The notes under the pieces are model-generated. The model made no database searches. It saw only the letters and a list, made by a program, of their open reading frames with translations, and was not told the DNA's origin. A stretch of 64,000 nucleotides of DNA from a phage: sequence record PZ452583.1. One strand, given 5' to 3'. Below are positions 18,451-38,602 of the stretch, piece by piece. The position numbers and the translations under genes are program-made. The stretch's first letter is position 1, and each line of letters starts with the position of its first letter.

Positions 18451-18920
18451 TTTAAACTCTTTCTAAGCTGCTTCTTAAATGAAGCTATTAATTGTGTTTT
18501 AGTGTCAGATTCATTATATTCAAATCCTCTTTGAAGCATCTCAGCCATCATTTCCTCTTTTCCTAAACGAGAAAATTCCTTTGATTTATCTCCAACAAAG
18601 TTAGGGTGAATATTATTTTGGGTGTAATCGGATTTTAAATAAGTAAGTAAATTTTCTAACCATTCAAGATAATCAACACCTTGCCCCTTTAAGCCAGAAC
18701 GATTAAATTTATGTTTCATTTGACCTTCTGCGGCATTGCAGAGATTACAAAGCAATCCACGTACCTTTCCTGCTTTTGGTCCATTTAATTCATGGTCATG
18801 ATCAAGATGATTAGCTTGAACATCAGGATTTAGTTCTCGTTGGCAAATTAAACATTTACCATTTTGTGCATCATAAAATTTCTGTTTTTCTTCTTTATAT
18901 AATTTGCCAGTCAATAACAT
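18447..18920 (-). CDS. 49: Endonuclease VII (Holliday junction resolvase) gp49
   Basis: ORF track 157 aa (T4 size); Cys-rich zinc site CLICQ...CNLCN. Confidence 0.9.
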   Translation of the reverse strand: MLLTGKLYKEEKQKFYDAQNGKCLICQRELNPDVQANHLDHDHELNGPKAGKVRGLLCNLCNAAEGQMKHKFNRSGLKGQGVDYLEWLENLLTYLKSDYTQNNIHPNFVGDKSKEFSRLGKEEMMAEMLQRGFEYNESDTKTQLIASFKKQLRKSLK

Positions 18921-36118: not shown

Positions 36119-36332
36119 ATTTGACTTCCTCACCAGTACATAAATCATATTCAACTAAACGAATAGGTTCATGAATGCCATATCCTTGAACAGAAATTTC
36201 TGTCGTAGGATAAATTCCATCAATATCACCCATATTCCAGGCTTCATTAAATTGCTGTTCGCCTGAATTACTAAACCACTCGGCGAAAGCATTTAGCACA
36301 TCTTTAGAACCTTCAATAATTATCTTTGCCAT
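36111..36332 (-). CDS. Hypothetical protein
   Basis: ORF track 73 aa. Confidence 0.5.
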   Translation of the reverse strand: MAKIIIEGSKDVLNAFAEWFSNSGEQQFNEAWNMGDIDGIYPTTEISVQGYGIHEPIRLVEYDLCTGEEVKYD

Positions 36333-36694
36333 TACAAACTCTCAGTAAAGGTACGAGCAATAACGTCGCGCTGCTGTTCCGGAGTCAGAGAGTTAAAGCG
36401 AACTGCATAACCTGATACACGGATGGTCAGCTGCGGATATTTTTCCGGATGCTTAACTGCATCTTCCAGAGTTTCACGACGCAGAACGTTAACGTTCAGG
36501 TGTTGACCACCTTCAATTTTAACTGTAGGCTGTTGCTCAATTTCAATTTCACGGGCATGCAAACCATAGAAAATTTCTGGGTCTACAAAAGAGTCCTCTT
36601 TAAAGGTTTTAGAGACAATAATTCGTGCTTGAATACCATCTTCAAAATAAATAGTACCTTTATGTGTGCCTTCAAGAATTTGATATGCTTTCAT
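36332..36694 (-). CDS. Autonomous glycyl-radical cofactor-like protein (GrcA/YfiD-like)
   Basis: ORF track 120 aa; glycyl-radical signature RVSGYAVRF near the C-terminus; size and layout as for a PFL C-terminal domain homolog. Confidence 0.75.
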
Positions 36695-36701
36695 ATAAAC
36701 C

Positions 36702-37031
36702 TCAATTAGAAAATAAATTTATCCAAGATTGTTCTTTAATTAAAAATGGCTCAGAATCATATGCCATTAAACTTTGGGTGATTAGTCCTTTAAAAGGCCC
36801 ATCAATAAATTCCATGGTAAAATATGGAATTTTATTCATTAGCCGTGCATTAGGAGCAGTACACAAAACTCTGCATCCTTTGAATACGCCTTTTTGTAAT
36901 TTGTATTGCTTGGGATAAAATTCGCTCAAAATGTTATTATTTGCTAAAATTTCAAAATGATTCACCAATTTATTTTTAATAGTTTTTGGCGAAAAATAAA
37001 GATATTCGAAAAGCTGAGTGTCTGTCATCAT
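36702..37031 (-). CDS. Hypothetical protein
   Basis: Track ORF 36702..37082; supported start ATG 37031..37029 ([13 protein letters not shown]). Confidence 0.5.
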
Positions 37032-37624
37032 TGCATTCCGATTACGAAAAACTGTGGACGAGTAATACCACCAATGCAACATTTACTATTGCAGCAGTGT
37101 TGCACAGTTTCAATATGAATATCGTAAATTTTATCCATATCAGGAGATTTAACAGGCTCATCAATTATATACAAAATTCGTGAAAGCGATAAACCTCTGA
37201 ACTTGCTACCTCTATTACCAATAAAACTGCGCACAGAATCAGTAAATAAACGAAAACGTATATCATCATTAGAATAACGCGAAAATTCCTTTTTAATGTT
37301 ATTTGCAGAAATTTTAGCGTAAGCTGAAGTATTAGATAGAACAATAACTGTTCCGCCATCATACAGCCAATTAGCAGCAAAGTTAGTCACAGCAATTGAT
37401 TTACCGGATTGACGTCCACCATCTATACGAAGTGTACAGTACTGTTTAAGTAATTCTTCAAATGGCGGGATATATTCGTTTTTACAAATTTCTTCTACTC
37501 TAGCATCAGAATGGTGTGTAAAAGCATTCATCAGGGATAGATACGGGCCAGTTAAAAATGTTCTCATATTTTCTCTCTTAATTTTTGGGCCATTCCATGG
37601 CACATGAGTTGTCCATTCCTGCAT
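37028..37624 (-). CDS. Predicted P-loop NTPase
   Basis: ORF track 198 aa; Walker A-like GGRQSGKS; start ambiguous (ATG 37624 or 37567). Confidence 0.5.
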   Translation of the reverse strand: MQEWTTHVPWNGPKIKRENMRTFLTGPYLSLMNAFTHHSDARVEEICKNEYIPPFEELLKQYCTLRIDGGRQSGKSIAVTNFAANWLYDGGTVIVLSNTSAYAKISANNIKKEFSRYSNDDIRFRLFTDSVRSFIGNRGSKFRGLSLSRILYIIDEPVKSPDMDKIYDIHIETVQHCCNSKCCIGGITRPQFFVIGMQ

Positions 37625-37702: not shown

Positions 37703-38176
37703 TTATTTGAACGATTTAACGTACTGAATAGAACCCTTACTATTCACAAAGGCAATTTTACCATTTTTATTATACATGGTAGCAGTACGCTGATAACCAT
37801 AGGTTTGTTTACCAGATTGATAACCAACTAATGCAAAATTATCTTCACCCATTTTATTCTGTTTAGCGCGAATGCGTTCATGACCATGTGCCATAAGAAC
37901 CTTAGCATCACCAGTTGCAATGGATCGACGAGTTTTTTCATCTTCAACTGTATTAACAAAGTCGTCAAATGAATCAAATTTAGCATGAGATTTATTATAC
38001 AGTTTTCCATCTACTGCATAATTATATCCTTGTACATCCATCTCAACTTCTGTACCATCATCCAATACAGCAGTGATTTTTTGACCTTTTTTAAATTTCA
38101 AAAGATCAGTAAAAGATTCAGCAATAATTTGAGAATTAATAGCTGCTTCAGTAATAAATTCTTGATATGTTTTCAT
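37703..38176 (-). CDS. Internal-protein-like (capsid-targeting sequence) protein
   Basis: ORF track 157 aa; N-terminus MKTYQEFITEA nearly identical to the T4 IPIII capsid-targeting sequence MKTYQEFIAE, with an I-T-E gp21-type cleavage motif; AAAGGAAA Shine-Dalgarno. Confidence 0.65.
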   Translation of the reverse strand: MKTYQEFITEAAINSQIIAESFTDLLKFKKGQKITAVLDDGTEVEMDVQGYNYAVDGKLYNKSHAKFDSFDDFVNTVEDEKTRRSIATGDAKVLMAHGHERIRAKQNKMGEDNFALVGYQSGKQTYGYQRTATMYNKNGKIAFVNSKGSIQYVKSFK

Positions 38177-38185
38177 GGGTTTCCT

Positions 38186-38602
38186 TTAAATGTAAATATT
38201 TTTACCGTAATACTTATACCAATGTGGTTTCATTAAAATTTTTTCATCAAGTCGTTGTTGACTCAATTTAATAGCTGATTTGCATGGATTATAATCATTT
38301 TTCCATTCTACTGGAATATCGCTGATGTCAGGAACTTCAGTATCTTTTATACTGAACCCGCGTTTTAAGCATTCCGTTATAATGTCTAATTGACGCTTTC
38401 GCAAAAATTCTAACTTATCGTAAAAGAACGTAACATGACCAGAACCTAAAATAAACTCGGAAGATATTTTAAAATCTTTAACGCGCTTACCGTTTGCCAC
38501 ATGCTTACGAACTATACCAAAAACACGCGGCAATTCACGGTATTCTGCGATTAAATGTTGATCAGCAAGTTCAGATACTAAAGTCAAATTAATACGAGTC
38601 AT
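38186..38602 (-). CDS. denV: Endonuclease V (pyrimidine-dimer DNA glycosylase)
   Basis: ORF track 138 aa; N-terminus [29 protein letters not shown] matches T4 endo V as recalled. Confidence 0.92.

Follow-up and report, generated by a model that had tools for sequence, protein, structure and literature searches.

The vs.6 gene of a T4-like phage, probably encoding a spare part for host pyruvate formate-lyase, carries a 3' half of apparent host grcA origin

Two stand-alone glycyl radical proteins of about 14 kDa, YfiD (GrcA) of E. coli and Y06I of phage T4, have been described as spare parts that receive a glycyl radical from the pyruvate formate-lyase (PFL) activating enzyme (PFL-AE) and restore the activity of oxygen-cleaved PFL; in PMC8683613 and PMC13450708, which cite Wagner et al. 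2001 (BBRC 285:456), these two are named as the only spare parts validated so far. In YfiD the N-terminus is a disordered region that aids PFL-AE in installing the radical and whose role is otherwise enigmatic (2026 review PMC13450708), and a gene called vs.6 was reported with a Gly_radical match in all six T4-like genomes surveyed by Nolan et al. 2006 (PMC1524935). Here we analyzed a phage DNA stretch of 64,000 nt (sequence record PZ452583.1; this whole stretch is referred to as the window) with regard to an open reading frame (ORF) of 120 codons that runs from ATG to TAA on the minus strand at 36332..36694. Y06I of the T4 literature is taken by us to be the product of vs.6. We regard it as highly probable that the ORF is vs.6 (Y06I), encoding the phage's autonomous glycyl radical cofactor that rescues oxygen-cleaved PFL, and that the 3' half of this gene is derived from host grcA. 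The gene, its annotation and its spare-part activity are already known. For the vs.6/grcA mosaic no description was found in the searchable literature, outside which the T4 genome review (PMC150520) lies.

The sequence-only reading had described the product as a GrcA/YfiD-like glycyl radical protein of 120 residues with the fingerprint RVSGYAVRF at its C-terminus, and this description was borne out, the motif occupying residues 92-100 and the matches lying well outside chance. The Pfam model PF01228 (Gly_radical) matched Vs.6 with an E-value of 2.5e-18 and 67 bits (cutoff 22.2), the E. coli GrcA structure (PDB 6OWR) matched query residues 22-120 with an E-value of 9.3e-42, and the PflB structures 1H16 and 1CM5 matched with an E-value of 5e-26, placing query residues 58-120 on PflB 697-759. 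Residues 61-120 of Vs.6 are 100% identical to GrcA 68-127 at the protein level, and the C-terminal domain shares 78% identity with PflB. The equivalent of the radical glycine is Gly95 (codon GGT at 36410..36412), which aligns with Gly102 of GrcA and Gly734 of PflB, so that the glycine stands in the exact PFL/GrcA context. In a protein alignment of 19 phage and bacterial homologues RVSGYAVRF was invariant, and all 36 positions of the radical domain that are invariant in the homologue alignment are kept in Vs.6. The homology to GrcA extends over the whole length of the protein (protein alignment; the hidden Markov model alignments cover residues 20-120), with Q5, K29, D34 and R48 being nearly invariant across phage and bacterial sequences.

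The surrounding DNA identifies the locus. The 1.1 kb around vs.6 shows 98-99% identity to about 490 T4-like (Tequatrovirus) genomes, the best match being Salmonella phage Jbel (99.1%), and the gene at this position in phage AR1 is annotated as vs.6 or 'autonomous glycyl radical cofactor GrcA'. The T4 genome contains a single vs.6-type match, whose protein is 99.2% identical and differs in one of 120 residues (Q54 in the window, P54 in T4). The window phage is a T4 relative (Tequatrovirus), not T4 itself. Homologues were found by tblastn in 1589 of 50,697 phage records, including T5-like, jumbo, Aeromonas and Vibrio phages. In some of these records the gene is labeled 'pyruvate formate-lyase'; Vs.6 covers only positions 680-744 of the 744 positions of the PFL model TIGR01255 (89 bits, cutoff 994), and such labels are therefore misnomers. 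The labels 'ribonucleotide reductase subunit' and 'acetyltransferase-related' on other homologues are misleading as well.

At the DNA level vs.6 is composed of two parts that differ sharply in their relation to the host (coordinates in Table 1). In a blastn search only nt 179-363 of the gene matched E. coli, with 97.8% identity and always at grcA, in 5426 of 5426 complete genomes. Identity to E. coli grcA is 42.5% in the 5' half versus 97.8% in the 3' block (Fisher p 1.6e-34): codons 2-60 can scarcely be aligned with grcA, in codons 61-111 every nucleotide is the same, and the last nine codons contain four synonymous differences, whereas no nonsynonymous change was found in the radical domain. 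If the per-site identity were at the typical level of 84%, an exact run of 157 nt would be expected by chance with a probability of about 1e-12. The composition follows the same division, with a local GC peak of 49% between flanks of 26-36%, while E. coli grcA is uniform in GC content at third codon positions (GC3; 39% in the 5' half and 42% in the 3' block). For comparison we used grcA sequences of 80 species taken from genome assemblies. Over the 180 nt of the 3' block the window phage is 97.8%, T4 98.3% and Mosigvirus 95.6-96.7% identical to E. coli grcA, and the median identity of the window phage to bacterial grcA is 84% over 81 sequences; E. coli itself is 92.8% identical to Citrobacter amalonaticus and 83.9% to Salmonella. 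Likewise, the synonymous divergence (dS) in this block is 0.07-0.10 between phage and E. coli, 0.36 between E. coli and Citrobacter and 0.9 between E. coli and Salmonella. By these comparisons the 3' block stems from E. coli in particular, and its origin there is recent. The 5' half (ATGAAAGCATATCAAATTCTTGAAGG...) is conserved among T4-like phages and is common to Mosigvirus, Jiaodavirus and Karamvirus, the other Tevenvirinae genera examined.

Of the two genes only that of the phage is heterogeneous in composition, and the transfer therefore went from host to phage. We rejected the opposite direction, from phage to E. coli, since GC3 is uniform in E. coli (39% and 42%) and not in the phage (20% and 40%). 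PflB contains the same domain, but E. coli pflB is only about 81% identical to one phage allele, compared with 96-98% between grcA and the E. coli phages; the 3' block therefore comes from grcA, and pflB was rejected as its donor. The near identity of the 3' half to host DNA could also mean that vs.6 is a non-functional scrap of recently captured host sequence. We consider this exceedingly improbable: the reading frame is intact, it is preceded by a Shine-Dalgarno sequence of its own and is translationally coupled to its neighbor, the phage-type 5' half is kept in several genera of Straboviridae, among them Tequatrovirus, Mosigvirus, Jiaodavirus and Karamvirus, homologues occur in 1589 phage records, and the domain has undergone no nonsynonymous change.

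A second, independent donor became apparent in Jiaodavirus, in the homologues of Klebsiella phage K65_evo9, Salmonella phage PSE-D1 and Raoultella phage Ra_O-1. GC3 is 23-25% in the phage-type 5' half of these genes but rises to 60-63% in the 3' block. Over its first 165 nt this block is 94.5-97.6% identical to Klebsiella pneumoniae grcA (taken from a chromosome mislabeled as a plasmid in PLSDB), compared with 85.5-87.9% to E. coli and 86-87% to Salmonella, and in PSE-D1 the first 104 nt of the block are identical to the K. pneumoniae gene. For the E. coli phages the values over 165 nt are reversed, identity being 97-99.4% with E. coli grcA and 87-88% with the K. pneumoniae gene. The idea that phage and host genes simply diverged together, without exchange, was rejected, since dS between phage and host (0.07-0.35) is lower than that between the E. 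coli and K. pneumoniae genes (0.56) and each phage group is near to one host species only. The tract has defined limits: its 5' edge coincides with the start of a strongly conserved GAAGG(T/C)GG block, and the last three to four codons are phage-type in all groups (GAG AGT YTR or GAG GCA CTA, versus GAA AGC CTG in bacteria). The tract is internal to vs.6 at both ends and thus bears the signature of gene conversion, not of gene-end capture. Within Jiaodavirus the 5' halves are 97.8-99.4% and the 3' blocks 94.4-96.1% identical, which, with small counts, hints at ongoing exchange. On sequence evidence, the 3' half of vs.6 has been overwritten by host grcA at least twice and from different donor species, the donor alleles appearing to be those of E. 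coli in Tequatrovirus and Mosigvirus and K. pneumoniae-like in Jiaodavirus.

An artefact of propagation on the isolation host is an unlikely source of the patches: PSE-D1 was isolated on Salmonella, and its patch is 97.6% identical to the Klebsiella type and 86.1% to Salmonella; furthermore, the E. coli-type gene is present in roughly 490 independent isolates. Tequatrovirus isolates from Yersinia, Hafnia and Salmonella encode Vs.6 proteins that are 98-100% identical to the E. coli-patch type. Host-tracking was not seen in Karamvirus CC31, Slopekvirus, Pseudotevenvirus, Aeromonas phage 31, Vibrio phage QD01 and the T5-like phage AKFV33; these lineages show 66-84% identity to the available bacterial genes, and for Aeromonas phage 31 the best match, in an A. 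caviae chromosome, reaches 73.7%. Conversion is thus episodic and so far documented in two groups of Tevenvirinae. We consider it reasonably probable that vs.6 is a recurrent target of host-to-phage conversion, in which the radical-domain half would be overwritten by grcA of the current enterobacterial host species.

The conversions may be adaptive or neutral. In the neutral alternative the host-identical 3' half is a by-product of the very active T4 recombination, which would convert vs.6, the one gene of the phage with enough likeness to host DNA, from degraded host DNA in a self-reinforcing manner. This explanation concerns the mosaic only and not the function of the protein, and it is compatible with our reading of vs.6 as a host-patched spare part. 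The tract differs from E. coli only at synonymous sites, it ends inside a conserved block on both sides, Enterobacterales hardly vary in the radical domain in any case, and host matching at the protein level is imperfect, as in Enterobacter phage HK6 (see below), all of which would be expected of a neutral process. However, two host-type residues do track the type of phage, the E. coli phages having LEDAVKH where the Klebsiella-type phages have LLDAVEH. We regard the neutral explanation as quite plausible, if somewhat short of probable. If conversion is general and adaptive, it would keep the spare part matched to host PFL and PflA, and the patch in vs.6 would record the recent host history of a lineage, for example a Klebsiella-type history for PSE-D1 and Ra_O-1. 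The mosaic is a clear case of host-to-phage gene conversion in a T-even phage that lends itself to dating, with two donor species in sister genera. It makes testable how often T4-type phages recombine naturally with host DNA, whether the recent hosts of a lineage can be read from such patches, and whether the radical domain of GrcA must match the host while the N-terminal region is free to diverge.

With regard to function, the phage encodes no PFL, and no PFL activase either, since its NrdG falls below the cutoff of the PFL activase model. For PflA and PflB alike, Vs.6 must therefore depend on the host. We propose that vs.6 would be transcribed leftward together with its small vs neighbors, as strand, gap and TAATG overlap indicate. 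The host radical S-adenosylmethionine (SAM) activase PflA would then place the radical on Gly95, as reported for T4 Y06I, with which the window protein shares 99% identity. When oxygen cleaves host PFL at Gly734, the radical C-terminal domain of Vs.6 would dock in place of the lost fragment and, again by analogy to T4 Y06I and the same 99% identity, would restore PFL activity. Since T4 shuts off its host and degrades the host DNA, GrcA and PflB would presumably not be resupplied, and the phage copy would likely sustain the supply of acetyl-CoA, formate and ATP in micro-oxic or anaerobic infection. In addition, homologous recombination has replaced the 3' half by the host grcA allele, with the 5' half and the last three to four codons remaining phage-type. 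A different role would be that of a decoy that competes for PflA or occupies PflB, the phage N-terminal half throttling or redirecting host fermentation. This idea is consistent with the large distance of the N-terminal half from GrcA (42.5% nucleotide identity) and with the influence of the YfiD N-terminus on radical installation (PMC13450708), but T4 Y06I reconstitutes PFL activity like YfiD according to PMC8683613 and PMC13450708, and 36 of 36 invariant radical-domain positions are kept. We therefore judge a decoy role to be highly improbable.

Several observations weigh against the interpretation of vs.6 as a host-matched spare part. Vs.6 has TIGR04365 (GrcA) as its top NCBIfam model, with a match over residues 20-120, but at 154.9 bits it misses the equivalog cutoff of 170 bits because its first 20 or so residues and its N-terminal half have diverged; as Q5, K29, D34 and R48 are nevertheless shared with GrcA, it is a divergent homologue and not a strict equivalog by that model. 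We infer the function of Vs.6 in the window phage by carrying it over from T4 Y06I, and the phage N-terminus is unlike that of YfiD, so that kinetics or partner preference could differ. No in vivo phenotype of a vs.6 mutant was found in the searchable literature. As to the conversions, Enterobacter phage HK6 has the E. coli-type LEDAVKH and Enterobacter grcA alleles have LMDAVEH; in view of this mismatch the conversions may, but need not, be adaptive. Finally, host-tracking is not universal: for the homologues of T5-like, Aeromonas and, as far as the data allow, Vibrio phages, identity to the available bacterial grcA and pflB genes is no higher than 66-77%. Still, vs.6 is among the few auxiliary phage genes for which a biochemical activity has been shown, and its in vivo role in anaerobic or micro-oxic infection, the situation in the gut, is a gap in the searchable literature.

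The sequence-only reading had further placed the gene near the anaerobic ribonucleotide reductase (RNR) genes and had credited the phage with a full glycyl-radical toolkit. Both statements hold in part, the nearness only on the scale of the window, and the link to the RNR was overstated. NrdD and NrdG are indeed encoded in the window and score above their NCBIfam cutoffs, but they form a separate unit at a distance of 17,882 bp from vs.6 with many genes in between, and the toolkit lacks PFL and PflA. In NrdD the motif around the radical glycine, G580, reads RRTCGYLG, compared with RVSGYAVRF in Vs.6, and a BLASTP comparison of Vs.6 with the window NrdD showed no similarity (E of at least 4). 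On the PFL activase model TIGR02493 NrdG scored 50.9 bits against a cutoff of 231.75; it is an NrdG orthologue and not a PflA orthologue. A MotA-type promoter-like motif of its own lies just upstream of nrdD (18513..18538, minus strand). The window thus contains two unrelated systems, a self-contained class III RNR and a host-dependent spare part. The latter could still be imagined to work in the RNR system, as a spare part for oxygen-cleaved NrdD or as a radical acceptor or regulator for NrdG, for homologues lie inside nrd clusters in two distant phages: the order in Aeromonas phage Ah1 is nrdD-nrdG-vs.6-nrdC-nrdH, and in Yersinia jumbo phage fHe-Yen9-04 the homologue is located between nrdD and the gene of an NrdG-type activase. 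A function in nucleotide metabolism was also suggested from the shared Pfam domain (Nolan et al. 2006, PMC1524935). However, such clustering could reflect mere co-expression or co-regulation of functions related to anaerobiosis, the C-terminal domain matches that of host GrcA completely and PflB at 78%, a distance of 17.9 kb separates the genes in the window phage, and the biochemistry in PMC8683613 ties Y06I to PFL and PFL-AE. A part played in the RNR system is very unlikely in our view, and a spare part for NrdD in particular was rejected on account of the missing similarity and the different radical motif. As a separate observation, nrdD in the window is a single uninterrupted ORF of 605 codons. 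T4 nrdD (sunY) carries a group I intron, and relative to T4 the window phage appears to have an intron-less allele.

Table 1. Window positions of vs.6, its parts, its neighbors and the anaerobic RNR genes
Feature	Position	Strand	Basis or property
vs.6 (T4 Y06I) coding sequence, GrcA homologue	36332..36694	minus	ORF list, Pfam Gly_radical, PDB 6OWR and 1H16, AR1 synteny
Fingerprint RVSGYAVRF, residues 92-100	36395..36421	minus	alignments to GrcA and PflB
5' half, codons 1-60, AT-rich, phage-specific	36515..36694	minus	GC 33%, GC3 20%; 42.5% nucleotide identity to grcA
3' block, codons 61-120, glycyl radical domain	36335..36514	minus	97.8% DNA identity to E. coli grcA; GC 48%, GC3 40%
Exact 157-nt run shared with E. 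coli grcA, core of putative gene-conversion tract	36360..36516	minus	longest-run comparison
Shine-Dalgarno sequence GAGG	36700..36703	minus	read from sequence; 5 nt upstream of vs.6 ATG
vs.7, upstream ORF	36702..37082	minus	ORF list; its TGA stop overlaps the GAGG of vs.6
TAATG overlap of vs.6 stop and next ORF start	36330..36334	minus	ORF list, sequence
Next ORF, 73 amino acids	36111..36332	minus	ORF list
nrdD, anaerobic ribonucleotide reductase, 605 amino acids	16633..18450	minus	NCBIfam NF006732, 906 bits
nrdG, radical-SAM activase of NrdD, 156 amino acids	16166..16636	minus	TIGR02491, 199.8 bits (cutoff 126.1)

We also regarded the neighborhood of vs.6. The gene is separated from vs.7 by a gap of only 7 nt, and the order of genes in AR1 is vs.8, vs.7, vs.6, a vs.5-like ORF, vs.4, vs.3, regB, vs.1, vs and tk.4. 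The common strand, the 7-nt gap with its GAGG and the TAATG overlap imply that vs.6 would be co-transcribed and translationally coupled within the leftward vs cluster. Around vs.6, sigma-70-like sites occurred at chance level (15 versus 16.7 expected) and a scan for terminators likewise gave no more than chance. A pattern scan for MotA-box-like sites (TGCTTNA-N11-13-TANNNT) found none between vs.6 and 42.2 kb; in the whole window there were 22 compared with 4.5 expected, 18 of the 22 being located on the minus strand. At 37703..38602 (minus strand), where vs.8 and the lysozyme gene e flank the region, we observed an ORF of 157 amino acids followed by one of 138 amino acids. The first is equal in size to the AR1 internal protein Ip4, and the second is presumably denV-like. 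In AR1 Ip4 is followed directly by e with nothing in between. Evidently the internal-protein region near e varies among close relatives.

Some oddities were recognized in the database records used for the comparisons. CP125156.1, labeled 'K. pneumoniae plasmid unnamed2', is 5.37 Mb long and represents a whole chromosome, and the same applies to NZ_OL790696.1, NZ_CP141089.1 and others; chromosomes labeled as plasmids are a trap for plasmid statistics. The record NZ_JBQPOM010000029.1, assigned to the Gram-positive Vagococcus sp. WN89Y, contains a grcA of enterobacterial type whose protein is 91% identical to that of E. coli, and this assembly is probably mislabeled or contaminated. In Klebsiella aerogenes NCTC10006 the grcA coding sequence is annotated in truncated form (324 nt), and blastn aligned 174 nt of it with 173 nt of the phage gene, so that the record may contain a frameshift or an error of sequencing.

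Among the known systems T4 Vs.6/Y06I is the closest; it is the very same gene, placed as in the window (vs.8-vs.7-vs.6-...-regB-vs.1-vs), and differs from the window gene only at residue 54 and a few synonymous sites. E. coli GrcA (YfiD, 6OWR) is likewise a stand-alone protein of about 14 kDa whose C-terminal 60 residues, including the radical glycine, are identical; GrcA is 7 residues longer than Vs.6, the N-terminal half of Vs.6 has strongly diverged and has an AT-rich coding sequence, and the phage gene lies in a phage early-region cluster, whereas grcA is found at its host locus with ung upstream. With the C-terminal domain of PflB (1H16) Vs.6 shares, in residues 58-120, the RVSGYAVRF motif around Gly734, but PflB (about 760 amino acids) also has the catalytic barrel and Cys418/Cys419, both of which are absent from Vs.6, and Vs.6 is therefore no enzyme by itself. 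NrdD and NrdG of T4 are also a glycyl radical protein and its radical-SAM activase, and both kinds are encoded in the window; NrdD, however, has no sequence similarity to Vs.6, carries a different radical motif and is encoded 17.9 kb away. For the mosaic the nearest parallel is psbA of cyanophages, in which intragenic recombination has produced host/phage mosaics with patches of host-like sequence and composition. Like vs.6, psbA is an auxiliary metabolic gene of phages with host-like patches that imply repeated intragenic exchange from host to phage; the two cases concern different proteins, hosts and lineages of phages, and the tract in vs.6 is one defined block that is internal to the gene at both ends.

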